Below are positions 7,538 to 19,718 of a stretch of 28,537 nucleotides of DNA, in pieces. Location of the stretch: contig CALRHN010000001.1 in assembly GCA_943359425.1 (NCBI GenBank), forward strand, positions 1 to 28,537, read 5' to 3'. Positions within the stretch are counted from its first letter, which is position 1. The number at the start of each line of letters is the position of its first letter. Source of the stretch: Candidatus Nomurabacteria bacterium (GTDB lineage: Bacteria; Patescibacteriota; Minisyncoccia; Phycocordibacterales; UBA9973). The position numbers and the translations under genes are program-made. The notes beneath the pieces were generated by a model. It was given only the letters and a program-made list of their open reading frames with translations, ran no database searches and had not been told where the DNA came from.

Positions 7538-8916
7538 AAAATATTCCACTCAAACTCCATAACAGCCTGACGAAAACGATCGAGGACTTCGTTCCGATTA
7601 CTGAGGGAAAAGTCGGCCTCTATACGTGCGGACCGACGGTCTACAACGTCGCCCATATCGGCAATTTCCGCGCATATATATTTGCCGACATTTTGCGCCG
7701 CACGCTCGAGTATGCGAACTACGATGTCACGCACGTAATGAATCTCACCGATGTCGACGACAAGACTATTCGCGACAGCCAGAAGGCCGGCGAATCGCTC
7801 AAAGCTTTCACGGAAAAATATACGGATATCTTCCTCGCTGACCGTGATGCACTCAATATCGTTCCCGCACATCAATACACGAAGGCGACGGACTATATTC
7901 CTGAAATGGTCGCAATTATCGAGAAGCTGCTTGCGAACGGACACGCATATACTGTTGAGGACCTGCCTGCGCAGGCAGGCGGCAGCGTTTATTTCAAAGT
8001 CGCAAGCGATGAGAAATACGGCCAGCTTGTCCCCATCGATCGTGAATCACTCAAAACAAATGCGGGAGGGCGCATCAAGAGCGATGAATACGAGAAGGAC
8101 GGCGCGCAGGATTTCGCTCTCTGGAAGGCATGGGATGCCGCTGATGGCGATGTATTCTGGGACACTGCACTTGGCAAAGGACGTCCCGGATGGCATATCG
8201 AATGTTCAGCCATGAGCATGAAGACGCTCGGCAATCATTTCGACATCCATACGGGCGGCGTGGACAATAAATTCCCCCACCACGAGAACGAGATCGCGCA
8301 GAGCGAATGCGCTACCGGGGAGCATTTTGTGAATTACTGGCTGCACAATGAATGGCTTCTCGTCGACGGCAAGAAAATGGCCAAGTCTGCCGGCAATTTC
8401 CATACCCTCGATGATATCCGCGCGAAGGATATTCCTCTCCTTGCCTTCCGCTACTTGCTCTTGCAGACGCACTATCGCACGCCGCTCAATTTCACCTGGG
8501 AATCACTCGAAGCGAGCGAGACTGCTCTGAAACGTTTGTACGCAGTCTACGAAGCGTTAGGAGATGCCGTTGGTGCTGTGTCGGACTCATATAGAGAAAA
8601 ATTCGCAGGCGCCATGGCTGATGATCTCGGCGCACCGCAAGGCCTCGCCGTCATGTGGGAACTCGCAAAAGACACTTCCCTCTCTACAGCTGACAAGAAA
8701 GCAACGATGCTCGACCTCGACAGAGTTCTCGGCCTCGGCCTGGCGCAGATCGCCCATGAAGCTCTGCCGGAAGAAATAGAAAATTTGAAAATAGCTCGCG
8801 ACAACGCTCGCGCGGAAAAAGACTGGGCGCGATCCGACGTGTTGCGCCAAGAGATGGAGAATCTCGGCTATGTAGTGAAAGACACTGACGACGGCCAAGT
8901 CGTCACGAGAAAATAA
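7534..8916 (+). CDS. cysS: Cysteine--tRNA ligase (460 aa)
   Basis: YTCGPTVYNVAHIGNFR (HIGH), DFALWK, GRPGWHIECSAM, HTGGVDNKFPHHENEIAQ, KMAKSAGN (KMSKS). Confidence 0.97.
   Translation: MKNIPLKLHNSLTKTIEDFVPITEGKVGLYTCGPTVYNVAHIGNFRAYIFADILRRTLEYANYDVTHVMNLTDVDDKTIRDSQKAGESLKAFTEKYTDIFLADRDALNIVPAHQYTKATDYIPEMVAIIEKLLANGHAYTVEDLPAQAGGSVYFKVASDEKYGQLVPIDRESLKTNAGGRIKSDEYEKDGAQDFALWKAWDAADGDVFWDTALGKGRPGWHIECSAMSMKTLGNHFDIHTGGVDNKFPHHENEIAQSECATGEHFVNYWLHNEWLLVDGKKMAKSAGNFHTLDDIRAKDIPLLAFRYLLLQTHYRTPLNFTWESLEASETALKRLYAVYEALGDAVGAVSDSYREKFAGAMADDLGAPQGLAVMWELAKDTSLSTADKKATMLDLDRVLGLGLAQIAHEALPEEIENLKIARDNARAEKDWARSDVLRQEMENLGYVVKDTDDGQVVTRK
7962..7979. repeat. 18-bp perfect palindrome inserted in frame in cysS (encodes LPAQAG)
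   Basis: CCTGCCTGC|GCAGGCAGG within ...AYTVED-LPAQAG-GSVYF...; second copy at 19396-19413. Confidence 0.75.
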
Positions 8917-8936
8917 AATTTGAAAACAAATCTTCA

Positions 8937-8976
8937 ATATCTAAATAACACCACGATCGTGGTGTTATTTAGATAT
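8937..8976. repeat. 40-bp perfect palindrome (ACGATCGT family); probable bidirectional terminator between cysS and the histidine kinase
   Basis: ATATCTAAATAACACCACGA|TCGTGGTGTTATTTAGATAT, no loop or mismatch. Confidence 0.85.
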
Positions 8977-8993
8977 GTCTACTTGAAAGAATA

Positions 8994-10376
8994 TTATTTC
9001 GTCACTGCAAGTTCGAATATGAAAGACGAGCCTTTTCCTGCGCCCGCCGATTCGGCCCAGACGCGGCCTTTGTGCGCTTCGATGATCTGCTTGGCGAGAT
9101 AAAGCCCGAGACCGGAGCCGCCCGTGTTGACCTTGCCGCCTTCACCGCGGTTGAATTTCTTGAAGAGCGTCGGCAACGTCTCAGCAGATATGCCCATGCC
9201 GTTATCCGTGACGGAGAATACGACGTACTGCGGATCTTTTTTCACAGACACGGTGATAGTGCCGCCTTTCTCGGTGTATTTGATGCTGTTATCGATCAAG
9301 TTAAGCATGACTTGGCGGATTTTTTCCATGTCGCCGTTCACCATGATCGGATTCGCTTCGGGAGATGAGAATTCGAGTTTCAGGCCTTTGTGCTCGGCTG
9401 TGATAGACAGATCGCGGGCCAAATCGCTCGCCGCAGTTTTTATATCGAACGGCGCCATCTCGTATTTCATGCCGCCTTGCTCGATCTTCGTCACGTTGAG
9501 CAAATCTTCGACGACTTTCGTGAGATGATTCGTCGATTCGAAGACACGATCGATAGCGTCTTTCTGATTCTTGTTCACTTCGCCGAAAGAGCCTTCGAGA
9601 AGCATGGATGTGTAGCCTTTGATGGCCGTGAGCGGAGAGCGGAGCTGGTGGGATGCGAGGGAGAGAAATTCTGTCTTCAATTTGTCGAGTTCTTTCAGTT
9701 TCTCGTTCGCATCCTGCAATTCTTTATACAGGAAAGCCTTGTCGAGAGCAACGGCGATCACGTCGATGAAGCTGTTGATAGATTCCTGCTCGAATGTATT
9801 GAGCGTGTCATAGTTGCGGTTGAGGCCGAAGATGAGCGCGCCCAAGACTTCGCTCTCGGTCTGGAGTGGATACGAAAGGATCGTTTTCAAATGCGACTCC
9901 GTCGTGATCTTGGAAAGTTTCTCTGCAGGGATGAGACCGCCCCAGACGTCATTGATATCGTCGGAGAGGATGCGTTTCTTCTCGTAGATGACTTTCTTGA
10001 AGAATTCGTGATGCGAGACATCTGAAATGGTTACGTCTTTGAAAAGGAAGCCGAGCTGTGTGAGCATCTCCTGCATCCGCTCGGATTTCGCGAATGTCAG
10101 CGGCGTGAGCAGATCTTTTGTAGCATCGAATACTAAAATACCTGCGATCTCCATGTTCAGATCGGCGCGAATCGTTTCCGCTATTTTTTCAGAGAGTGCC
10201 GTCGGATCGAGCTTGAGGAGAGAAAGTTGATAGAGTTTGCGCAGGAGGGAGAGCGTCTTATTCGTGACCGCAAGCTCGGCATTCTGTTTGTAGAGGGTTT
10301 CATTGACACCTTGGAGGCTGTCATCCGGAAGAGAAGCTCCCGGCTCCTTTTGTTTTTTTGATCGAGAAAAAAACAT
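8994..10376 (-). CDS. Cytoplasmic GAF-domain sensor histidine kinase (460 aa)
   Basis: H box FLSLASHQLRSPLTAIKGY, N box QVMLNLIDNSIKYT, G1 VTDNGMGI, F box LFKKF, G2 GSGLGLYLAKQIIEAHKG. GAF-like N-terminal region; no transmembrane helix seen. Confidence 0.93.
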   Translation of the reverse strand: MFFSRSKKQKEPGASLPDDSLQGVNETLYKQNAELAVTNKTLSLLRKLYQLSLLKLDPTALSEKIAETIRADLNMEIAGILVFDATKDLLTPLTFAKSERMQEMLTQLGFLFKDVTISDVSHHEFFKKVIYEKKRILSDDINDVWGGLIPAEKLSKITTESHLKTILSYPLQTESEVLGALIFGLNRNYDTLNTFEQESINSFIDVIAVALDKAFLYKELQDANEKLKELDKLKTEFLSLASHQLRSPLTAIKGYTSMLLEGSFGEVNKNQKDAIDRVFESTNHLTKVVEDLLNVTKIEQGGMKYEMAPFDIKTAASDLARDLSITAEHKGLKLEFSSPEANPIMVNGDMEKIRQVMLNLIDNSIKYTEKGGTITVSVKKDPQYVVFSVTDNGMGISAETLPTLFKKFNRGEGGKVNTGGSGLGLYLAKQIIEAHKGRVWAESAGAGKGSSFIFELAVTK

Positions 10377-10381
10377 AGGAC

Positions 10382-10663
10382 TTATTTGAGGCTCGAAGGC
10401 ACTTGTTCGGGCGGTAACTCGGCTATGAGGTCCTGAACCGCTTCCTTACAGATCTCATTGGAAGCGCGACCGAAGAGATGCTCGTATTGAGCGACAAGAT
10501 TGTTTATGATTTGCTTGCTGTCTCCCGTTGTCGTGACTTCGCCTTTCGTGGAATCGACAACACTGAAGCCGGCAACTTTGCGTGCCTCATCCCAAGCCAC
10601 CGGCCCGATGATGAGTTCTTGCTCCTTGATTATTCTCACTGATATTTGATCAAAGATGGTCAT
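10382..10663 (-). CDS. Small conserved hypothetical protein (93 aa) in the sensor-kinase operon
   Basis: ORF packed between the membrane sensor and the kinase (20 and 5 nt gaps). RIIKEQELIIGPVAWDEA...LVAQYEHLFG resembles small proteins recalled from CPR signalling loci; not verified. Alternative start 10687. Confidence 0.7.
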   Translation of the reverse strand: MTIFDQISVRIIKEQELIIGPVAWDEARKVAGFSVVDSTKGEVTTTGDSKQIINNLVAQYEHLFGRASNEICKEAVQDLIAELPPEQVPSSLK

Positions 10664-10683
10664 GGCATGTATGGCGATAGCTA

Positions 10684-11520
10684 TCATACTTTTTGTTTCT
10701 TCGATAAGACTCGCGGGTCAAGCATCATGATGCCCAGAGAGAGGACGAAAACGGCCGTCGTAAACAAGAGATCAACCCAACCAGCAGGATAAAAAGTGTC
10801 GAGCGTCGTTGTATATGAAAATGAGAAATCAGCGATATACATGAGGGCGAAACCTGAAAGGATGAGATAGATGGCCTTCTTATAAACGCCGCCGAAGTAG
10901 TTGTATGAGAGTCCGTATATGACAGTTGCGATGGAGAGAATAACAACGTCTCCGACCGGATAGGCGAGATCGAAGAAGAATTTGAGCGCTCCATCAGAGA
11001 GTGAGAGATCAAGAGACCCTCCCCGGGCAACCGTGACGAGAAGATAGTATGAGAGACCTATGATGAGCGTGGGAATGAGCAATAAGAGTGCCTTGCCTTT
11101 CGAAGAACGAAGCGAGTACCGTGCTCCTGTCGCTCGAGAGAGCTGTATCATGCCCGCGACCCACAACGGCAAGCTCAATATGTATCCGACATCGGCAATG
11201 GAAGGATACGGGACGGGCACATTGAGGATAAAGTTATATACGCCGGAAAAAATATACGTACCGATCCCCCATGAGATGAGTCCGAGGGAGAAAAATACGG
11301 TAGCTCTGCCGAGGGCGCTTTTCAGAAAGCCCCAGCGCCGTGCAATAGAGAGACCGTACAATCCTCCGAACACGGGAATGAAGCCGAGGAAGAGCACTCC
11401 GTACAGGTTGTTCGAGAGAGAGTCCGTAATGTGCGCCAACCAAAGTATGGCGACGGTCAAAACGGCGAGAGCGTAGTCGATGATTAAAATATTCCGAGCA
11501 AGAGTTTTGTGTATATGCAT
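10684..11520 (-). CDS. Stand-alone polytopic membrane sensor-like protein (about 8 TM)
   Basis: Motifs VPYPSIADVGY, DLAYPVGD, MYIADF, GWVDLLF as in membrane input domains of GGDEF proteins and kinases, but no cytoplasmic output domain. Start uncertain (11520 or 11577); the track's extension to 12021 overlaps the next gene antisense. Confidence 0.75.
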   Translation of the reverse strand: MHIHKTLARNILIIDYALAVLTVAILWLAHITDSLSNNLYGVLFLGFIPVFGGLYGLSIARRWGFLKSALGRATVFFSLGLISWGIGTYIFSGVYNFILNVPVPYPSIADVGYILSLPLWVAGMIQLSRATGARYSLRSSKGKALLLLIPTLIIGLSYYLLVTVARGGSLDLSLSDGALKFFFDLAYPVGDVVILSIATVIYGLSYNYFGGVYKKAIYLILSGFALMYIADFSFSYTTTLDTFYPAGWVDLLFTTAVFVLSLGIMMLDPRVLSKKQKV

Positions 11521-11560
11521 GGAGATACCGAGGCGACCCCCTTGATGGGTCCACGGGTAT

Positions 11561-11590
11561 ATTGTAATATATTGCATATTTTTGTACAAT
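11561..11590. promoter_or_regulatory. Overlapping divergent sigma70 promoters (sensor operon / carbamoyltransferase)
   Basis: Plus strand TTGTAA(11562-67)-17-TACAAT(11585-90); minus strand TTGTAC(11589-84)-17-TACAAT(11566-61). Confidence 0.6.
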
Positions 11591-11598
11591 AGGCGCGT

Positions 11599-13326
11599 AT
11601 GAAAAAACCTGCCTATGTTCTCGGACTTAACTTTGTCTACCATGAAGTCTCGGCCTGCCTCCTCAAAGACGGCAAGCTTTTGGCGGCCGTTGAAGAAGAG
11701 CGTTTTTCCAGAATCAAACGAGGCAAGAAATGCCTGATCGATAACCCCGACGTCCTTCCCGTGCAATCGATCGAATACTGTCTCTCGATCGCGGGTATCT
11801 CTCTTCGGGAAGTCGACTACATCGGCCTGTCCTTCATGCCCGAGGATCGCCTGCGGCAGAACATCGGCGTTGACGAGTACCTCACCAAAGGCGACTGGGG
11901 AACGGCAACGGGAGAAAAGCTTTTCTATAAAAAACTCCAGAAAGTTCCGGGAATGATCAGTAAGCTCGCCGGACGAGATATGATGAAGAAGATCACCTGG
12001 GTCCCCCACCACATCTGCCATGCGAGTAGTGCATATTTTGTCTCCCCTTTCAAAGAATCTGCGGTGTTGACGATCGACGGCATCGGAGAATTTTCTTCGG
12101 CATGGATCGGCTACGGCAAGAACAATGCCATCACTAATCTCTACGAAATCTCTTATCCCAACTCTATCGGTTTCCTCTGGGAGAAAATGAGCAAATACAT
12201 CGGCTTTACCGAATACGATTCATCCAAGGTGATGGGCCTCGCCGCATACGGGAACTCGAAGAGATTTTATACAACCTTTCAGAAAATAGTGACGTTGACG
12301 CCGGAAGGGACTTTTACTGTTGACACTGACGTCATGCGCTTCCGAGTCGAAGATTACAGTCGTCTTGAAAAAATATTCGGTGTCAAAAGAATACACTCTC
12401 CGAAAGATATTCGAAAGGAGCAGAAAGATATCGCCGCCGCACTCCAGAAGATCACCGATGATGTCGTCATCCATGTCGCGAAATATCTCAAGAAGAAAAC
12501 CGGTTCGGATAATATCTGTCTCGCTGGAGGCGTAGCTCTCAATTGCGTGTGCAATAACGTTCTCATGAAGAGCGGCCTTTTCAAGAATATCTATGTACAG
12601 CCTGCTGCCAACGACGCGGGAACCGCTCTCGGAGTCGCCTACTATCTCTGGAACCAAGTACTCGGCCACAAGCGCTCCTTCGTCATGGATCACGTCTACT
12701 GGGGACCCGGATACTCTGACGCATCTATCAGATCTGCGCTCGACAAGAGCAAGGCTTCGTATCACAAGAGTGCCAATATTGCGAAAGAGCTCGCCGGAAA
12801 GATCGCCGAAGGAAATATCGCGGGTTGGTTCCAAGGACGCAGCGAATGGGGGCCGCGAGCGCTCGGCAACCGATCGTTGCTCGCCGATCCTCGCCGAAAG
12901 AACATGAAAAGGATCCTCAACGAACGCATCAAGAAGCGCGAGGGATTCCGGCCATTTGCGCCGAGCGTCTTGAAAGAAGACGCAGCAGGATGGTTCGTCA
13001 TACCGAAGAAGTCCCAGTCCATCTCGACCGAATTCATGGAGATCAATTTTGATATACAGAAATCAAAACAGAAAAGAATCCCTGCCGTGACGCACATCGA
13101 CGGAACGGGACGAGTGCAATTGGTGAATAAAAAAACCAATCCTCTCTATCACAAACTTATTTCCGAGTTTCGCCGCCTCACCGGAGTTCCAATCCTTTTG
13201 AACACTTCATTCAACGACAATGAACCGATCGTCTGCTCGCCCGAAGACGCGCTGAAAACGTTTCTGCGCACAAAAATGGACTATCTCGCCATAGGTCCCT
13301 ACCTCGTCAGCAAGAAAGCTAAATAA
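11599..13326 (+). CDS. NodU/CmcH-family carbamoyltransferase (575 aa)
   Basis: Kae1-like N domain (HEVSACL, EEERFSRIK, HHICHA, TIDGIGE, LAGGVALNC) and YrdC-like C domain (GRSEWGPRALGNRS, KKREGFRPFAPS, HIDGTGRVQ, LNTSFN). Confidence 0.93.
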   Translation: MKKPAYVLGLNFVYHEVSACLLKDGKLLAAVEEERFSRIKRGKKCLIDNPDVLPVQSIEYCLSIAGISLREVDYIGLSFMPEDRLRQNIGVDEYLTKGDWGTATGEKLFYKKLQKVPGMISKLAGRDMMKKITWVPHHICHASSAYFVSPFKESAVLTIDGIGEFSSAWIGYGKNNAITNLYEISYPNSIGFLWEKMSKYIGFTEYDSSKVMGLAAYGNSKRFYTTFQKIVTLTPEGTFTVDTDVMRFRVEDYSRLEKIFGVKRIHSPKDIRKEQKDIAAALQKITDDVVIHVAKYLKKKTGSDNICLAGGVALNCVCNNVLMKSGLFKNIYVQPAANDAGTALGVAYYLWNQVLGHKRSFVMDHVYWGPGYSDASIRSALDKSKASYHKSANIAKELAGKIAEGNIAGWFQGRSEWGPRALGNRSLLADPRRKNMKRILNERIKKREGFRPFAPSVLKEDAAGWFVIPKKSQSISTEFMEINFDIQKSKQKRIPAVTHIDGTGRVQLVNKKTNPLYHKLISEFRRLTGVPILLNTSFNDNEPIVCSPEDALKTFLRTKMDYLAIGPYLVSKKAK

Positions 13327-13831
13327 CAAATATGCAGAGTGCGACTGCGGATACCCATTCATCGCCGCCCGGATGCGCGATAGAGGCGGTTGTCGCGTGA
13401 AGAATTTCAATATCAAGTTCTGATGCGGAAACGCCTTTTTTCACCGAGAGCATTTCGAGCGCGAGCGTTCTCGCTTTTTCATCAACGGCATCTTTGCCGA
13501 GCGTCGTACTGTGAAATTCGGAAATATAACCGAATTGCTTGGAATCTTTCAGTTTTGCCATGCCGACCGATGCCGAAGCTATTTCCCCGGCCTGGTTCGT
13601 GTCCTGTCGTGCCATCACGCAGAAAGTGATCTGCCCCGGCGTGAGCATTGGAAAACCCTCTTCCGGAGTTATTATTTTACACTCTGCAGGAATGATGCTG
13701 GAAACACAGACGAGATTATGCGCGAGAGGACCTGCAGCTATGAGTGCGCGGTCAAAGGCTTGGAGATGGTCAACGTGCTGTCCGGTGCCTGATATGAAAA
13801 AAGCGTATTTGGGAAGAAAATTGTTTGACAT
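13319..13831 (-). CDS. pdaD: Pyruvoyl-dependent arginine decarboxylase family protein (170 aa)
   Basis: SGTG...LQAFDRALIAAG...NLVCVSSIIP (Ser-Ser self-cleavage site), FCVMAR, ASASVG...GYISE, C-terminal SAVALCIF. Overlaps the carbamoyltransferase 3' end by 8 bp (convergent). Confidence 0.85.
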   Translation of the reverse strand: MSNNFLPKYAFFISGTGQHVDHLQAFDRALIAAGPLAHNLVCVSSIIPAECKIITPEEGFPMLTPGQITFCVMARQDTNQAGEIASASVGMAKLKDSKQFGYISEFHSTTLGKDAVDEKARTLALEMLSVKKGVSASELDIEILHATTASIAHPGGDEWVSAVALCIFVI

Positions 13832-13846
13832 GGATTGCAGTATACC

Positions 13847-14419
13847 TTATTTGGAAGAAAATCTCGACCGCAGGGTTAGCAATAGGATCGAACCGGTATT
13901 GATGACCATATAGGCCGGGAAAATGATAATCGCAAATGTTCGGCTTCCGATCGCAAGCAGCAGATTTGCCGTATTGCCGAAAAAACTCATGCTCCACGAG
14001 AGTCTGCTCTCACTCTTGGGGTCTTTCATCGTCTTTACGAATGTGGGAATCAATCCGAGCGCATCGATGAATATACTCATCACCAGCGCCGAGACCGGTG
14101 AATCCGAAAGCGCCCAAAAAAGAAAACTGATGCCGGCGCCTATGAAGCAAACGATGTCGAGCGTCGTCCATCCTCCGACGCCATATTTTATGGAAAGTAT
14201 GGCAATACAGAGCGGTCCGATGAAATACGAGGCTGCGGACCACACGGTGTCCACTGCGCCAGAAGAATGATAGGAGAGAAAAAGCGTAAGGCCCACCAGT
14301 GTCCAGATGAACCATGTCGCGCGTTCAGGTTTCGTTTTTCTCTGTAGGACGGAGACGACATACGGCACAAATGCCAGTAATGTTACCGCACCGGCAAGTT
14401 CGCCTATGAGTGCATTCAT
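13847..14419 (-). CDS. Small polytopic membrane protein, PQ-loop/SemiSWEET-like (190 aa, 6-7 TM)
   Basis: Two internally similar halves (AFVPYVVSVLQRKTKPERATW and GLIPTFVKTMKDPKSESRLSW) with alternating TM helices. Fold assignment by resemblance only. Confidence 0.65.
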   Translation of the reverse strand: MNALIGELAGAVTLLAFVPYVVSVLQRKTKPERATWFIWTLVGLTLFLSYHSSGAVDTVWSAASYFIGPLCIAILSIKYGVGGWTTLDIVCFIGAGISFLFWALSDSPVSALVMSIFIDALGLIPTFVKTMKDPKSESRLSWSMSFFGNTANLLLAIGSRTFAIIIFPAYMVINTGSILLLTLRSRFSSK

Positions 14420-14486
14420 ACGGGAGAACTATAGCACGAGTTTAGAGGGAGATACAGGTGTCGGCAGAGGAAAAGTGGAAAAGAAA

Positions 14487-14512
14487 AGGACATCGATTTG
14501 TTTCGATGTCCT
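14487..14512 (-). terminator. Intrinsic terminator after the speA-ligase unit
   Basis: AGGACATCGA-tttgtt-TCGATGTCCT 10-bp stem, followed on the minus strand by a pyrimidine/U-rich tract. Confidence 0.7.
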
Positions 14513-14639
14513 ATCCTAAAAAATCTTCCGCACTTGTTCCAAAACAAAATGTCCCAGATGAAATCCGGTGAACAATACGAGAAAGCAAAATGTGGTGCTC
14601 ACGACCACGGCGATAAGGAGGAATGCTAGCACTTCCCCG

Positions 14640-15884
14640 TTAATTGTCAAAAATGACTGGCAACTGCACGCAATCGCTCGCTCCGTGGACAAGCATCTCT
14701 TTGCGGCCGGTAACTTTGATACCGGCAATACCCGTCGCCGAGACGTAGAGTGTTATCCGCAGATAGAATTCGGACATAACGCGAGAATCGCCTTCGAATA
14801 TCGGCAGAGAGGCCAGTTTCGGCTCCACGCGCTCTTGAACGATCCAGTGTGGAGCTTTGATATGGTGCTCGGCCGCCTCAGCGAGTATGGCAGAAAACCT
14901 TTCGGCATCGATGTCTGAAAACACGACTCCTTTCGCACCCGAAGAATAGACGGCCTTGGCGACCATTTCCGTGACTGTAGGAGATTTTGAGAATACGCAG
15001 GCCTCGTATTTTCCGACGAGCAAGGCAGTTGCCGGTATGAAACGATTCATACCTTCTTGTTTCGCCAGAAAAGGCAAGAATCCCTTGGAACCCAAGTAGG
15101 CTTTCGGCGGATACAACGCTCCCAACTCTCCCGAAGGATATCGGGCAAGAAGATATTCATGGACTCGGGGATACCGATCGAGGGATTCGGAAATTATGAG
15201 GATGGGACGCACTTTCTCTCCGTCGTGGAGAAGTTCCAGATCTTCTCCAACATCGTGCTCTCGCAAAAGGTGCACCGATATGCCTCGGAACGACATCGAA
15301 CGTGCAAGGATGGCATAGACAGTTTCGTAATACCGCTCTTTCTCCGATACGAGAATCGTCCAATCGTCTCCTACTCCCTCGTTTTGGACGGCACGAGCAA
15401 TGCTCTCCGCGATTGGATATGCGGGAACCCGTCCAGAGAGCGAGAGTGTTTCATCAAGGAGCGCAATCATCCCCAACGCTCGCGGATTATAGGTATCTAC
15501 CTCGACAATGGCATACGTCCCGTCAGTTTTCTCTACGAGATCGAGTTTCAAGAGCGAAGGAATCTTTTCCTCCGGATCTTTGCCGGGATTGAAGAGCCCG
15601 TGAGCAGCGCTCTTGCCCACATGCAAAAAACGAGCCTCTTCGTGAGAAAGGACTCGTTGATGCGCTAGCTCTGAAAAATGCTTTTCGAGATTGGCCACTG
15701 CTCCATACGCAGCCTTGGCAATCTCTTGGAGCTCTCTATGTGGGGGAGCGGTAAGGCGATATGCTCCAGGAGAAAGTATGTATGAGTGCCGAATCCGTTT
15801 TTCAGGCGTATCCCAGTAGTGTATATCGATGAGGAATCGTTTGAGTTCTGAAAAGCTTATTCCTGTGTCGATGATTTGTTCCAT
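14640..15884 (-). CDS. Circularly permuted ATP-grasp amide ligase, glutathionylspermidine-synthetase-like (414 aa)
   Basis: LKLDLVEK..G.Y.IVEVDTYNPRALG (R/K-x-D...E-x-N/D metal-binding motif), LGSKGFL, AKAVYSSGAKGV, WIVQERVE, C-terminal R-x-T...VHG. The order of motifs matches GSP-synthetase/CP-ATP-grasp enzymes. Confidence 0.72.
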   Translation of the reverse strand: MEQIIDTGISFSELKRFLIDIHYWDTPEKRIRHSYILSPGAYRLTAPPHRELQEIAKAAYGAVANLEKHFSELAHQRVLSHEEARFLHVGKSAAHGLFNPGKDPEEKIPSLLKLDLVEKTDGTYAIVEVDTYNPRALGMIALLDETLSLSGRVPAYPIAESIARAVQNEGVGDDWTILVSEKERYYETVYAILARSMSFRGISVHLLREHDVGEDLELLHDGEKVRPILIISESLDRYPRVHEYLLARYPSGELGALYPPKAYLGSKGFLPFLAKQEGMNRFIPATALLVGKYEACVFSKSPTVTEMVAKAVYSSGAKGVVFSDIDAERFSAILAEAAEHHIKAPHWIVQERVEPKLASLPIFEGDSRVMSEFYLRITLYVSATGIAGIKVTGRKEMLVHGASDCVQLPVIFDN

Positions 15885-15912
15885 AGGATAGCTCTAATTG
15901 TTGTAGTAAGAT

Positions 15913-17289
15913 TTATTTCCCGTCGCCGTTGCTCCAGCCGAAGAGGCGACCAACCATTTCTGATGTTTCTCTCTTGCGTGCGATTTTGACAACGCCGTCC
16001 TGTGCAATCAATTTCGCGGGAGACGAGAGGAGGCAGTGGTGCGATGCGAGGGCGTCTTGGTATGCGCCCGTGTCGAAGATCATGACGTACTGATCGGTGC
16101 TGTCTTTGAGCTTCGGCAAGAGAATGTAGCTGCCACCCGCAGTGTATTTGTCATCGGAATCGCATGACGAGCCTGCGAGCCAGACGCGTTTGAGTTCGCC
16201 GCCGGCCGCATTGTTAATCGGCGCGACATGCCATTTCTGATGGATTGCCCAGGTGTCGATGAGGTCATTCATAAAAGATCCGTCGATGACGTACCATGAT
16301 TTCGCATTGCCCTTGTGGATCGGCTTCTCTGCGATGACTTTGTAGATAGTGACCTGGGAAGGCGCGACGACGTATTGTCCCCATTCGACAGCAAGGTTGG
16401 GATGGCGAATACCTTCCTTGTCGGCGAGTTTCTTCAGGAGTTTGACGATCTTATTCGCCATTATTTTGGCCGTGTAGAATTTCTTCTTCTCGTAGGGAAC
16501 GCCCATGCCGCCGCCGATATCGAGGGTGTCGAGATTCGGATGCGTTTTTACCAGTTCTTTGTAGATATCGAAACCGCGCTTCACGCCGTCGAGCAAGCTC
16601 TTCTGGGTGCTGATCTGCGAACCCATGTGATAATGCAGGACTTTGAGATTGCGGATCTTGCCGAGAGAGAGGATGCGGCGCTCGGGAATGCCGAAACGGT
16701 CGATCTTCTTGTCCCAGCGCGAATCGGCTTTGATATCGAGGTCGACACGGATGCCGATGTCGCCTTTCATCTTGATCAGTTGTTCGAGTTCGCCTTCGTC
16801 TTCGGCGATCGGGATTATGTTGAGGCCTTTGGCCTTGAGTTCGACGACGAGTTTGAGATAGGCCTCCGTTTTCGGACCGTTACAGAGAACGCGGATCTTC
16901 GAGTGGAACTTCTCCCCTTCCCAGAGTTTCTTCACGATCCAGAGCTCGTTTTCGGATGTGACTTCGAGATGCGCGCCTTCGGAGAGGAGCGGCATCACGA
17001 CTTCCTTGTTCTGGTTCACCTTCATCGGATAGTGATAGAAGAATTTACCGCGATAGCCGTAGATCTTCATATATGCGTTGAAATACTCGATGAGATCGCT
17101 CAGGCGATGTTCGAGTATGAAGGGGAAAAGTATTTCGAGCGATGTGCCGTATTTGCGCACGAGCTGCGGGAGGTTGTAGATGTAGTTGCCTTCTTTGACC
17201 GTGAGTTCGCCGTCTTTCGTCACGTTGAAGAACTGCGTGTTAAATTCTTCACTGCCGAGCTTCCAGAATTTTTTCCAATTCTTTTTCAT
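15913..17289 (-). CDS. speA: PLP-dependent biosynthetic arginine decarboxylase (SpeA-like, short form, 458 aa)
   Basis: YPMKVNQ (PLP lysine, compare SpeA YPIKVNQ), LCNGPK, HYHMGSQI, LDIGGGMGV, EWGQY, SSCDSDD, TGAYQD. Fold-type III decarboxylase; arginine specificity inferred from SpeA-specific motifs. Confidence 0.85.
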   Translation of the reverse strand: MKKNWKKFWKLGSEEFNTQFFNVTKDGELTVKEGNYIYNLPQLVRKYGTSLEILFPFILEHRLSDLIEYFNAYMKIYGYRGKFFYHYPMKVNQNKEVVMPLLSEGAHLEVTSENELWIVKKLWEGEKFHSKIRVLCNGPKTEAYLKLVVELKAKGLNIIPIAEDEGELEQLIKMKGDIGIRVDLDIKADSRWDKKIDRFGIPERRILSLGKIRNLKVLHYHMGSQISTQKSLLDGVKRGFDIYKELVKTHPNLDTLDIGGGMGVPYEKKKFYTAKIMANKIVKLLKKLADKEGIRHPNLAVEWGQYVVAPSQVTIYKVIAEKPIHKGNAKSWYVIDGSFMNDLIDTWAIHQKWHVAPINNAAGGELKRVWLAGSSCDSDDKYTAGGSYILLPKLKDSTDQYVMIFDTGAYQDALASHHCLLSSPAKLIAQDGVVKIARKRETSEMVGRLFGWSNGDGK

Positions 17290-17322
17290 GCGGGTGATTG
17301 TAGTATAAAACCCCAGAAAAAG

Positions 17323-18399
17323 CTATAGGTCTTCGGCACGCAGCTGCTCGACGGCTTCGCGGGCGCGCTTGGAGAGCTTGTGCGGCATCTTGATAACGAG
17401 TTTGATCATGAGGTCGCCGCGTTTGTTCTTGCCCTGCGGAACGCCTTTTTCTCTGACGCGGAGTATTTCGTTCGGAGCAACGCTTTCGGGAATCTTCACG
17501 GAGAGCTTGCCGTCGAGCGTCTCGATCGTGCGCTCGCCACCCAACAATGCCTCGGAGAGTTTGATGTCGAGATTCATAGCGAGATTGTGGCCTTCGCGGC
17601 GAAATGTCGGATGTGGCATGACGTTGATCTTGATATAAAGGTCGCCGGACGTGCCGTGCGAGATCGCTTCACCCATGCCGGAGAGACGGACCATTTCGCC
17701 GTCATTCATGCCTGCAGGAATCTTGATGGAAACTTCTTCTTCGCGGCGAAGAACGCCTGCGCCGTGACAGGTCGCGCACGGCGTGCTCGGAACTTCGCCC
17801 GTGCCTCCGCACGTGTCGCAGAGTTTCGTTGAAGAGAATGTTCCAAGGAATGAACGCTTCGTTTCGTGAATCTGGCCTTTGCCGTTGCAAGTGGAACATT
17901 TTTTCATCGATGTGCCCGGTTTCGCACCGACACCGTCACACGTCAGGCATTTTGAAGTCTTCGCAATGAGCACGCGGCGTTCGACGCCGAAGACGGCTTC
18001 GGCAAACGAAACGGTTATCTCCGTCGAGATGTCACGGCCGCGGCGAGGCTGTGAGCGACCACCACCCATACCTCCGGCGAAGAAGTCGGAGAAAATATCG
18101 CCGAGATCGCCCATATCGAAACCTTGCTGCGCAAAGCCGGACGGATCGAATCCGCCGAAACCGCCTTGGTTGCCCTGAAAGCCTCCGCTCTGAAAGTTGG
18201 AACCGAATTGATCATACTGCGCGCGTTTCTGGTCGTCAGAGAGCGTTTGATACGCTTCGTTTACTTCTTTGAATTTCTTGTCATCTCCCTTGTTCTTGTC
18301 GGGATGGTATTTGTGAGCGAGTTTGTGGAAGGCCTTCTTGATCTCGTCTTTCGAAGCGCCTTTCGTAACGCCCAAAATTTCATAATAATCTTTTGACAT
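17323..18399 (-). CDS. dnaJ: Chaperone DnaJ (358 aa)
   Basis: J domain with HPD, G/F-rich region, four CxxCxGxG repeats, C-terminal domain. Confidence 0.97.
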
Positions 18400-18452
18400 A
18401 TGTGAAAGCGATTATAACATTAAAAATAGAGAATGTACAACCCCAAAATTAG

Positions 18453-18484
18453 AGAAGAGCGGATTGAATTCAATCCGCTCTTCT
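18453..18484. repeat. 32-bp perfect palindrome, probable terminator upstream of dnaJ
   Basis: AGAAGAGCGGATTGAA|TTCAATCCGCTCTTCT, no loop. Confidence 0.8.
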
Positions 18485-18498
18485 AAAAATAAACAAGA

Positions 18499-18936
18499 TT
18501 ACTTTCGGTTGTGTGCGCCAAGCTCTTTCCACTTTTCGATATATTGTTCGTGGATGACCTTATTGCATAGTTCCAAAGAACCGTTGTAGAGAACCTCAAT
18601 AGAGAGCTTACCTTCCTCTGTAAGCTTGTATTGCTGATCCGGATTCTTCAGGAAAAAACTCCAGTTAATATCCTGAAAAATCCGCTTTGCCTTGAATACT
18701 CCTTCTTGGAAATGAGTTTCAGAAGAGCAAGGATAAGGAAATACGCTATCCTTAAAGGCAAATCGCGTTAAAGCCGGATCGGGTTTAAGAAAAACAAGGC
18801 CTGATTCGGTGTGAATCTTTTCGATAGCCCCGTCGTAATCAGTACGGCCACTGCGTAAATGGAAAAACGGAAATGCAGACAGGAGTTCTCCTGATTGCAC
18901 CAGTTGATGAAGCGATAGAAAAGAATTCTGTATCAT
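18499..18936 (-). CDS. Hypothetical protein (145 aa)
   Basis: AT-richer ORF filling the gap and ending just before the palindrome; no recognisable motif. Confidence 0.6.
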   Translation of the reverse strand: MIQNSFLSLHQLVQSGELLSAFPFFHLRSGRTDYDGAIEKIHTESGLVFLKPDPALTRFAFKDSVFPYPCSSETHFQEGVFKAKRIFQDINWSFFLKNPDQQYKLTEEGKLSIEVLYNGSLELCNKVIHEQYIEKWKELGAHNRK

Positions 18937-18990
18937 GGGGAGGGATTTTTGGTTTACGATTTTATTTTCCCCTCCATCGTACTTTAGAAT

Positions 18991-19344
18991 TCAGAGCGTT
19001 GCAAGAGCGTCGGTGGCTTGATAATAGAGATCGCGGTTATTTGTGTCTTCGGCGAGCGTGCCGAGGCGGGCCCAGAGGCTGCGGGCGCGGGCAACTTCGC
19101 CTATGTCGGCGTATGCGCGTGTGACAAAGACGAGCTCCTCGATGGCAAGCGCTCCGATGCTTGCGGGCAAAGCGCCTTGCGAGAGCAGGCTCGATGTGCG
19201 GCGTTCTATCTCGGCGAAGTCAGACTCTGATTTCGGAGTTTTGCGAACGAGTTTCAAGAGCGTCGACGTCGCAACGCCTTCTTCGTTGATTTCAAAAAGT
19301 TCATCATCGAGATAGCTGTCTTCGTATTTTTTACGATAGACCAT
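18991..19344 (-). CDS. Hypothetical alpha-helical protein (117 aa)
   Basis: ORF 5 nt downstream of the MGMT-like gene; C-terminal half looks like a helical repeat. No family recognised. Confidence 0.65.
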   Translation of the reverse strand: MVYRKKYEDSYLDDELFEINEEGVATSTLLKLVRKTPKSESDFAEIERRTSSLLSQGALPASIGALAIEELVFVTRAYADIGEVARARSLWARLGTLAEDTNNRDLYYQATDALATL

Positions 19345-19349
19345 ATATT

Positions 19350-19619
19350 TTAGAGTGCGCCCTCTGCGCGGAGTTTGCGGAGTTTTAAAGTTCGGCCTGC
19401 CTGCGCAGTCAGGCCGCGATTATATTCGCCTATCGCTCCATCGGAACGGATGACGCGGTGACATGGGATTTTCGGATCGTAATTCTGCTTCAAGACAGAG
19501 CCGACAGCACGAGACGCATTCGGACTCCCCGCACGAGTGGCGACTTGTTTATAGGTGAGCATCTTCCCTCTCGGTATGGCGCCGACAACGCGGAAAACTT
19601 TTTCTTTGAACGTCTGCAT
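19350..19619 (-). CDS. MGMT/Ogt-family methylated-DNA--protein-cysteine methyltransferase domain protein (89 aa)
   Basis: IPRGKMLTYKQVA...G.P...RAVG...IPCHRVIRSDG..GEY with the active-site PCHR motif. Start at MQTFKEKV. Confidence 0.9.
   Translation of the reverse strand: MQTFKEKVFRVVGAIPRGKMLTYKQVATRAGSPNASRAVGSVLKQNYDPKIPCHRVIRSDGAIGEYNRGLTAQAGRTLKLRKLRAEGAL
19396..19413. repeat. Second copy of the 18-bp palindrome, in frame in the MGMT-like gene (encodes LTAQAG)
   Basis: CCTGCCTGCGCAGTCAGG, 17/18 identical to 7962-7979. Confidence 0.7.
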
Positions 19620-19718
19620 GAGGCCATTATACGGAATTTGGGTAAAAAATAAAATGCCTTCCGCACCCATCGCTCCGTGACAAAGCTAATGAGTGCGGGA
19701 AGCATTCGTGGCAGTCCT

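Follow-up and report, generated by a model that had tools for sequence, protein, structure and literature searches.

The two 18-bp palindromes in the window (the whole 28,537-nt stretch that was analysed) are probably, with a probability of roughly 0.6, copies of a miniature palindromic insertion element, that is, the nuclease-less, termini-only (9 bp + 9 bp) form of a hairpin-ended element family. Their translation product, LPAQAG, lies in surface loops. The 18-mer is the smallest member of a widespread family rather than an isolated oddity of this genome.

Table 1. Palindrome copies in the window and the genes that carry them
Feature	Position	Strand	Remarks
Exact 18-bp palindrome CCTGCCTGCGCAGGCAGG	7962-7979		Inside cysS; translated as LPAQAG, with Asp143 and Gly150 on either side
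One-mismatch palindrome copy (G to T, position 14)	19396-19413		Inside the minus-strand MGMT-like gene; translated as LTAQAG
cysS, cysteinyl-tRNA synthetase (CysRS), 460 aa	7534-8916	+	Pfam PF01406 (E = 7e-106), also PF23493
MGMT-family DNA-binding-domain protein, 106 aa, PCHRV motif	19350-19670	-	Pfam PF01035 (E = 8e-25)

The sequence-only reading had reported one palindrome shared by cysS and, with one mismatch, the MGMT-like gene, read in the same frame in both; both copies were found where it had placed them (Table 1), and the common frame was confirmed. The products run ...AYTVED-LPAQAG-GSVYF and ...YNRG-LTAQAG-RTLK, and in each gene the first base of the palindrome supplies the third base of a codon. 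The palindrome can be drawn as a 7-bp stem plus GCGC or, alternatively, as a perfect 9 + 9 structure, and as single-stranded DNA the cysS copy is predicted to form a hairpin of -8.6 kcal/mol. By chance, 0.01 matches with three or fewer mismatches would be expected in the window, and two matches were obtained in 0 of 100 shuffles.

For comparison with orthologs, cysS was available from all relatives (25 of 25) and the MGMT-like gene from 13 of the 17 genomes searched, G000 counted among them. Sixteen CysRS orthologs read AYxxxD|GSxYF or similar at the junction, with at least 6 gap columns opposite LPAQAG and exactly 6 in the seven closest. At the LTAQAG site, 12 MGMT-like orthologs, one of them 77% identical and from the same family, showed gaps of 5-6 columns, with 6 in eleven of them. 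The six-residue extras that had been noted in the two proteins thus correspond to clean 18-nt indels, and removal of the 18 nt restores the host codon in both genes (GA|C in cysS, GG|C in the MGMT-like gene). Exactly 18 nt were gained and no target-site duplication was detectable, with a 1-2-nt ambiguity possible at the G...C flanks. Mapping onto surface loops, which had also been proposed, placed the CysRS copy at the tip of a predicted β-hairpin loop (residues 142-150, between strands 138-141 and 151-154) in an AF2 model, with a pLDDT of 61 for the inserted block vs 96 on either side.

A scan of the assembly (526 kb, a CPR/Patescibacteria-type MAG, 84% complete) for further copies bore out the suspicion of an excess over chance. 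Ten copies of the 18-mer were found, 6 exact and 4 with one mismatch, where about 1e-5 would be expected; copies with 2-3 mismatches were absent from the 526 kb. This is the most repeated 14-mer family of the genome. All ten copies lie inside housekeeping ORFs and are in the LPAQAG register on the gene-carrying strand (p about 2e-5). At one of them (C33) the opposite strand offers an overlapping frame of slightly greater length (294 vs 278 aa), but Pfam confirms the LPAQAG frame as a pseudouridine synthase. Besides CysRS and the MGMT-like protein, a clean 6-aa indel was seen for the first of two copies in DnaE. The second DnaE copy and the copy in GlyRS lie in length-variable loops, where a clean indel could not be called. 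The other repeated palindromes of this genome are unrelated to the 18-mer in sequence and are mostly intergenic or in short open frames.

Within the order the 18-mer is patchy, being present in 66 of 401 genomes at 0-18 copies per genome, and congeneric genomes contrast sharply (18 vs 0, 12 vs 0). A reversed-pattern control gave 0 in every genome. The 18-mer was also found in many other CPR classes and some other phyla; its sources span many studies, many assemblers, and two isolate genomes. When 162 unique exact copies were pooled and only unambiguous long ORFs were scored, the frames LPAQAG, PACAGR, and ACLRRQ were used in a ratio of 58 : 11 : 1 (p = 6e-18). In the flanks of 150 copies only a purine at -1 and a pyrimidine at +1 were conserved; the 18-mers of this genome lie at purine|pyrimidine junctions, in most cases within a codon for Asp, Gly, or Asn that belongs to a turn. 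Many copies are intergenic, within tRNA fragments, at the centres of other palindromes, or nested in each other. A tRNA-intron reading of the copies in tRNA-like sequence was tried and rejected: ARAGORN recognized a tRNA-Gln only after deletion of the 18 nt, at one locus only, and the remaining tRNA-like loci are 5' fragments adjoining an intact gene. The 25 matches in viral contigs were set aside, being mostly from high-GC contigs with duplicates and too near chance and misclassification. Together, the clean indels, the excess of copies, and the patchy spread among relatives support the earlier proposal of a very small mobile palindrome that adds peptide loops to proteins, an essential one included.

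The 9-bp halves of the 18-mer are the outermost bases of a longer hairpin-ended element, whose ends pair to give a terminal stem. This full-length form has neither start nor stop codon of its own and lies in frame within host genes. Its product is a GIY-YIG (UPF0213-like) nuclease with a single domain, 93-97 codons long (Pfam PF01541, E = 5e-16), and the translated insert begins with LPAP and finishes with RQAG. Metagenomes yielded at least 120 contigs carrying it. Among the 123 matches listed, 51 were 282 bp, the most frequent length, and 96 had a length divisible by 3; 84 were open in the LPAP... frame, and 71 were embedded in open frames on both sides. In 71 distinct element nucleases the Y, YIG, R, H, and E residues were conserved at a median identity of 58%, and the ends were invariant; the nearest solved structures are those of the UPF0213 proteins 1ZG2 and 1YWL. 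In distant taxa the element occupies identical positions within orthologous genes (HsdM, HsdR, HsdS, and an aminoacyl-tRNA synthetase). A 291-bp copy lies in hsdR of a WOR-3 MAG; a solo 18-mer and a 39-bp form are present in that gene too. Among the 401 genomes of the order only one full-length copy was found, 282 bp long, in the ArgRS gene of G258, and no full-length nuclease-encoding element was found in the present assembly (84% complete).

Small forms of other sizes were also found. In-frame forms of 30, 33, 36, and 39 bp mostly read LPA...QAG, and a 20-bp form lies mostly outside genes, in short open frames or close to ORF ends. Some copies are nested at the exact centre of other copies.

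In the mechanism proposed for the termini-only element, pairing of the termini in single-stranded DNA would bring the two junctions close to each other. The base of the stem might then be cut by a GIY-YIG nuclease acting in trans, by analogy with the Ssn enzymes, and the hairpin would be joined to a new target that is nicked or single-stranded, which could also be the tip of another hairpin. Selection would retain mainly copies that the host protein tolerates, with a length that is a multiple of 3 and in the LPAQAG frame. To our knowledge, GIY-YIG nucleases do not form a covalent DNA intermediate, which leaves the joining step with no candidate enzyme. Also counting against the proposal are the presence of 18-mers without a full-length element in this 84%-complete assembly and the finding of only one full-length element in 401 genomes of the order; in addition, copies with 2-3 mismatches, which simple neutral decay of older insertions should leave behind, are absent from this genome. 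A comparison of 68 sites with full-length copies and 127 sites of the 18-mer likewise turned up no site with the former in one genome and the latter in another. The suggested check for co-occurrence with GIY-YIG genes did not discriminate at Pfam level: small genes of this kind are nearly ubiquitous in genomes with or without the 18-mer, with the largest number (7) in G147. The free-standing GIY-YIG protein of the present genome is 41% identical to an element nuclease, and the termini do not flank its gene. A bolder version, which we put forward tentatively and at somewhat less than even odds, is that the 18-bp hairpin is a self-sufficient transposition substrate moved in trans by small GIY-YIG single-strand nucleases. 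In that version the autonomous parent would represent a selfish element of a new class, with a nuclease gene lacking start and stop codons, expressed only as a loop domain of the interrupted host protein, intein-like without splicing, and crossing phyla via restriction-modification and aminoacyl-tRNA synthetase genes.

The shared ends could also mean that the 18-mers are only scars, left where the stretch between the paired termini of an in-frame full-length GIY-YIG element was deleted or excised, the 18-mer itself never moving. The 18-mer has termini identical to those of full-length elements and the same LPA...QAG frame; the 30-39-bp forms resemble a deletion series and share genomes and genes with full-length copies; and a strong bias to the one frame open in the full element would follow directly. 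We nevertheless consider it unlikely that scars are the whole account, since the order holds 1 full-length copy vs solo copies in 66 genomes, up to 18 in each, and since the 18-mer and 20-mer are discrete, abundant size classes rather than a continuum. The frames bear on the question as well. The other five frames of full-length elements contain stops, about 5 of them in the PACAGR frame, so the solo copies in essential genes that use this frame, which accounts for 11 of 70 clear coding copies, cannot be in-situ remnants. Copies that are intergenic, in tRNA fragments, at palindrome centres, or nested also speak against scars.

Movement of the 18-mer as a REP-like palindrome by a RAYT or IS200-IS605-type Y1 (HUH) transposase appears quite improbable. 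Hairpins are established substrates of the Y1 family (discussed in PMC11893778), and Y1_Tnp-like ORFs of 220-245 aa were found in this genome (1) and in the high-copy genomes G340 (7), G175 (7), and G372 (2). Such ORFs were equally frequent in zero-copy genomes (5 in G384, 10 in G309), however, and none was found in G147, which with 18 copies has the most (PF01797 hits, 10-genome sample); the co-occurrence with RAYT genes that had been suggested was therefore rejected as a simple explanation. Moreover, the GTAG or CGTC tag is absent, only the R|Y flank being conserved, and the copies in this genome are all intragenic. That the 18-mer is instead a useful motif selected by the host, such as a DNA-uptake sequence, a protein-binding or recombination site, or an RNA hairpin, is very improbable. 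Its perfect conservation between very distant lineages, the lack of decayed copies (2-3 mismatches) in this genome, and the reliance on DNA uptake that is commonly ascribed to CPR bacteria would fit such a role. It arrived by insertion and not by substitution, however, at low and erratic copy number (0-18 per genome, with none in most congeners), interrupts loops of unrelated essential proteins without positional logic, and has its ends in common with a nuclease-encoding element. A constant short palindrome seen chiefly in MAGs might also bring to mind an adaptor-like assembly or library artefact. We find this scarcely credible, since an artefact could yield neither the 58:11:1 frame bias, the coding-matched length classes, and the one-mismatch variants nor clean codon-level indels in conserved proteins, and could not explain why the 18-mer recurs in the data of many studies, with many assemblers, and in two isolate genomes.

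Taken as a termini-only insertion element, the 18-mer looks like an exceptionally small kind of mobile DNA that is apparently undescribed; no description of the 18-mer or of its LPAQAG peptide was found in the literature. It is a candidate target for a single-strand nuclease that recognizes structure or sequence, a kind of enzyme with biotechnological interest (compare PMC11893778). If it moves as a unit, the known minimum size of mobile DNA falls several-fold, and if the hairpin is self-sufficient for transposition, it would be the smallest mobile DNA known. Such movement would reveal how proteins encoded by ultra-small genomes, the replicative polymerase and aminoacyl-tRNA synthetases among them, can acquire additional loop residues. 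In practical terms, the invariant 18-mer is a marker of recent DNA traffic between uncultured CPR bacteria.

The analogy drawn by the sequence-only reading with the Rickettsia palindromic elements (RPEs) holds for in-frame palindromic insertion, in a CPR-type host and at a much shorter length. RPEs, which Ogata et al. reportedly described in 2000, are said to be about 100-150 bp long and confined to Rickettsia, and we know of no transposase identified for them. In both cases palindromic repeats lie in frame in unrelated, often essential, genes and are translated as extra surface peptides. The 18-mer is far shorter (18 bp vs about 100-150), is spread over many CPR classes as well as other phyla, and shares its ends with a full-length relative that encodes a nuclease.

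Ssn GIY-YIG nucleases cleave ssDNA adjacent to hairpin repeats, and Chenal et al. (2025, PMC11893778) remark on the IS-like repeat-gene-repeat layout of these systems. There, a single-domain GIY-YIG gene of about 94 aa is bracketed by hairpin repeats, with many solo repeats elsewhere (PMC11893778); equivalent bracketing holds for the full-length relatives found elsewhere, whereas this genome has no such copy. The NTS/SRM repeats are about 28-30 bp, oriented, and placed around genes rather than in frame inside them, and by eye the published NTS consensus is unlike the 18-mer beyond both being GC hairpins (PMC11893778). The element nuclease also differs in having no start or stop codon and being translated within a host protein. 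Its nearest solved relatives are UPF0213 proteins; a place in the Ssn clade (cd10448) is possible.

REP/REPIN-RAYT systems likewise consist of very short, dispersed, GC-rich hairpins thought to be mobilized in trans by a domesticated single-strand nuclease/transposase (PMC3733652, PMC3116915), but REPs are extragenic, carry a tetranucleotide tag (GTAG/CGTC), and co-occur with a REP-flanked RAYT, none of which holds for the 18-mer. As in MITEs, a non-autonomous derivative has retained nothing of a longer coding element but its terminal inverted repeats, here 9 + 9 bp; the differences are the lack of a target-site duplication, the size (18 bp vs the usual 50-500 bp), and a parent that encodes a GIY-YIG nuclease and not a DDE transposase. 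The parent is unusual by itself in that its nuclease is translated as an internal domain of a host protein, and its fixed sites in type I restriction-modification genes of many phyla suggest a homing-like selfish element that needs neither intron nor intein. With inteins and free-standing homing endonucleases it has in common a nuclease coding sequence in frame in conserved genes at recurrent sites. Pfam finds only GIY-YIG in the full-length insert; a Hint or splicing domain was not detected, and the mature protein therefore presumably retains the insert. A further difference from inteins is that inverted repeats bound the full-length element and that it gives rise to termini-only derivatives.

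The 18-bp perfect palindrome CCTGCCTGCGCAGGCAGG (hereafter the 18-mer) lies in cysS and, with one mismatch, in the MGMT-like gene, as the sequence-only reading had claimed; 0.01 matches are expected at up to three mismatches in a sequence of the window's size. In both genes the element begins at the third position of a codon, so the shared reading frame also holds, and because the 18-mer is a perfect palindrome it gives the same peptide and register on both strands. As single-stranded DNA, it is predicted to fold into a hairpin. Coordinates are collected in the table, in which G000 is the source assembly, other G numbers are compared genomes, C numbers are contigs, and L numbers are individual loci.

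Coordinates of 18-mer copies, host genes and associated features
Feature	Location	Strand	Description
18-mer copy 1	7962-7979		exact; in cysS, read D-LPAQAG-G
18-mer copy 2	19396-19413		one mismatch; in MGMT-family gene, read G-LTAQAG-R
cysS (CysRS)	7534-8916	+	Pfam PF01406
MGMT-family gene	19350-19670	-	106 aa; Pfam PF01035 (MGMT DNA-binding domain)
DnaE copy 2	G000 C2:22179-22196		one mismatch; read LPAQTG
21-bp hairpin relative	G000 C4:13445-13465		in another ORF
Y1_Tnp ORF	G000 C2:7700-7924 (L181)		IS200/RAYT-like
32-bp perfect palindrome	G000 C16 ~1650-1681 (L221 ~1428-1459)		GATACACTTTCTGCGATCGCAGAAAGTGTATC
Nested copies	G285:C3:49943-49980		9+9+20+9+9
tRNA-Gln fragment loci	L061:1724-2105; L071:3529-4013; L144:389-760; L014:1489-1717; L076:361-487; L072:6792-6914
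Loop-less palindromes	G000 C10:12497; C22:1888 and 2323; C23:5988; C50:629; C3:3937; C13:2241

Both proteins were aligned with orthologs. All 16 CysRS orthologs, drawn from the same family and order and 43-66% identical, carry AYxxxD|GSxYF or a similar sequence, and at least six alignment columns stay empty in them opposite LPAQAG (exactly six in the seven closest). For the MGMT-like protein, 12 orthologs, one of them 77% identical to the window's protein, showed a gap of 5-6 columns at the element site (six in 11 of the 12). The six-residue extras proposed from the sequence alone are thus clean gaps in both families. Deleting the 18 nt rebuilds a normal codon (cysS, GA|C; MGMT-like gene, GG|C), and no target duplication is visible at either site. 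Judged by these alignments, the 18-mers in the two genes are insertions. In an AlphaFold2 model of the window's CysRS (mean pLDDT 90.1), residues 142-150 make up an irregular loop that joins strands 138-141 and 151-154, with a pLDDT of 61 for this block versus 96 on either side; the modeled insertion site is the tip of a β-hairpin, as the proposed mapping onto surface loops would have it.

The source assembly (526 kb, 52 contigs, 50.6% G+C, 84% complete) was scanned, and the 18-mer proved to be its most repeated 14-mer family, with six exact copies and four that differ at one position; no copy has two or three mismatches. All ten lie inside ORFs in the LPAQAG register (p ~ 2e-5 for one of three frames). 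By ORF and Pfam assignment, the hosts are CysRS, the MGMT-like protein, DnaE (two copies), GlyRS, an HhH-GPD glycosylase, an IleRS-like class I synthetase, a Mur ligase, an RluA-type pseudouridine synthase, and MiaA. Against four orthologs, DnaE copy 1 is also a clean six-residue insertion. The other DnaE copy and the one in GlyRS fall in length-variable loops, where a clean insertion cannot be judged. DnaE copy 2 aligns with KPLQTG in its closest relative, the G005 ortholog (L421), whose DNA has CAGACAGG in common with it, the same mismatch included. This copy may be an older insertion common to both lineages, decayed in one but not the other.

Across the order, the 18-mer (at most one mismatch) was found in 66 of 401 sampled genomes and 48 of 224 genera; a reversed-sequence control gave zero matches in all 401. 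Its distribution is patchy at short range, with 18, 2, 0, and 0 copies per genome in one genus and 12 and 0 in another. Among the matches listed (one genome per species), most are from Patescibacteria of many classes (WWE3, Microgenomates lineages, Saccharibacteria, and Paceibacteria lineages), together with several multi-copy Bacteroidota MAGs, Gammaproteobacteria MAGs, and Terriglobia. The junction bases were conserved in part: across 150 unique exact copies, position -1 is a purine (77%) and position +1 a pyrimidine, with no conserved sequence beyond these positions outside the 18 bp. When 162 unique copies were restricted to unambiguous long ORFs with G+C below 0.56, the frames LPAQAG, PACAGR, and ACLRRQ stood at 58:11:1 (chi-square p = 6e-18). 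The residue preceding the leucine in clear coding copies is mostly D, G, or N. Many further copies lie in short frames, i.e. between genes.

Full-length relatives encode a GIY-YIG nuclease between the same ends. In hsdR (type I restriction) of a WOR-3 MAG, a 291-bp in-frame insert bounded by CCTGCCTGC and GCAGGCAGG reads LPAPRPG...(GIY-YIG)...AARQAG, and the same gene additionally carries a solo 18-mer and a 39-bp form, the latter reading LPAPQSEAARQAG. A single genome of the 401 (G258) has a full-length copy, 282 bp and in frame in ArgRS, which splits a GA|C codon like the cysS copy of the window. The two nucleases are 56% identical, each matching PF01541 at E ~ 5e-16, and UPF0213 proteins are the nearest solved structures to the element nuclease. 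A metagenome scan using the extended left end plus the right end as pattern hit at least 120 contigs (34-66% G+C for those carrying full-length copies). Of the 123 matches listed, 51 measure exactly 282 bp, the length of 96 is a multiple of three, 84 are open in the LPAP... frame, and 71 lie within frames that stay open for 30 codons or more to either side; the 84 open copies have A at -1 in 67 and C or T at +1 in 76. Seventy-one distinct nucleases from these listed matches have a median identity of 58% and conserve the Y, YIG, R, H, and E residues, and their DNA ends are invariant beyond what the search pattern required. On folding, both ends of the full-length element pair into a terminal stem. 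Also among the listed matches, full-length copies are found repeatedly at identical sites in HsdM, HsdR, HsdS, an SNF2-like protein, and an N6-methylase; by analogy, such recurrence in type I restriction-modification genes resembles homing. Elements of 282-297 bp occupy identical positions in such genes in the metagenome contigs L273, L274, L278, L299, L310, L325, L332, and others, and the HsdM site follows ...TPGRYVG...EDD.

Other forms accompany the 18-mer in 39 of the 66 genomes. A 20-bp sister palindrome with a CCGG centre, CCTGCCTGCCGGCAGGCAGG, accounts for most of the extra-form matches, which reach 10-14 per genome (G248, G285, G162, G094, G325, and G337; e.g. L391, L392, L401, and L383), and is located for the most part outside long ORFs, in short frames or at the ends of ORFs. 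Forms of 19 bp are also present, and those of 30, 33, 36, and 39 bp retain more of the asymmetric inner terminal repeat. Most forms whose length is a multiple of three lie in long ORFs, and LPA...QAG is their usual reading. At several loci one copy sits precisely in the middle of another, and the 18-mer also occupies the midpoint of longer, unrelated palindromes; this suggests a preference for hairpin tips as insertion targets.

On the best reading, the 18-mer represents the termini-only form within a hairpin-ended GIY-YIG family. The earlier proposal of a small mobile palindrome adding peptide loops to proteins is supported, and the relatives with the same ends extend it. Solo copies might have arisen in two ways. 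Possibly the small form inserts by itself: of the 70 solo copies that are clearly coding, 11 are in the PACAGR frame, though full-length elements have stops in the other five frames; solo copies are far commoner than full-length ones within the order; and some solo copies lie in spacers or tRNA fragments or are nested in one another. It is also possible that full-length copies collapsed in place, which the strong excess of the only frame in which the parent is open would favor, although selection on the peptide would equally produce that excess. We infer the mechanism of movement itself, in which the cutting enzyme would, by analogy, be the GIY-YIG nuclease. Ssn-family GIY-YIG nucleases cut single-stranded DNA beside hairpin repeats, which often bracket their genes (PMC11893778), although the repeat consensus printed there does not resemble the 18-mer element. 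Neither the 18-mer nor the LPAQAG peptide was found in the literature searched; descriptive queries gave only REP, RPE-like, and Ssn papers.

Family-level tests of the suggested co-occurrence of the 18-mer with RAYT/Y1 or GIY-YIG genes did not discriminate for either. Small GIY-YIG and HNH genes adjoin some copies. G000 has a free-standing GIY-YIG gene (85 aa, C16:1723-1977) whose product shares 41% identity with an element nuclease but which is without element termini; the 32-bp palindrome lies ~40 bp upstream. In several Parcubacteria-type genomes, the exact 18-mer lies between ...gatcg and tctaatgg of a duplicated tRNA-Gln 5' fragment; after the fragment come a free-standing GIY-YIG or HNH endonuclease ORF and the intact tRNA-Gln, in that order. 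At one such locus the 18-mer is in a full second copy, and ARAGORN finds the tRNA only once the 18 nt are deleted. Y1_Tnp ORFs (220-245 aa) were found in G000, G340, G175, G309, and G384; some of these 0.6-0.8-Mb genomes carry several copies, with as many as 10 matches, and the ORFs might go with genome-specific intergenic palindromes.

The IleRS-like protein (G000 C21, L413) has a histidine-phosphatase domain (PF00300, E = 2e-24, residues 516-681) nested between its catalytic-domain halves. The N-terminal region of its gene contains another GC-rich hairpin, 36 bp with ends CCCGCCCGA...TCGGGCGGG, read in frame as PARPDAAGRSGG; with its 21-bp relative, more than one in-frame palindrome family is therefore present in G000. 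Several families of long loop-less palindromes, e.g. CATCTACGCCATGGCGTAGATG and TTGCATTGTAAGCGGCCGCTTACAATGCAA, are mostly intergenic and unrelated in sequence to the 18-mer.
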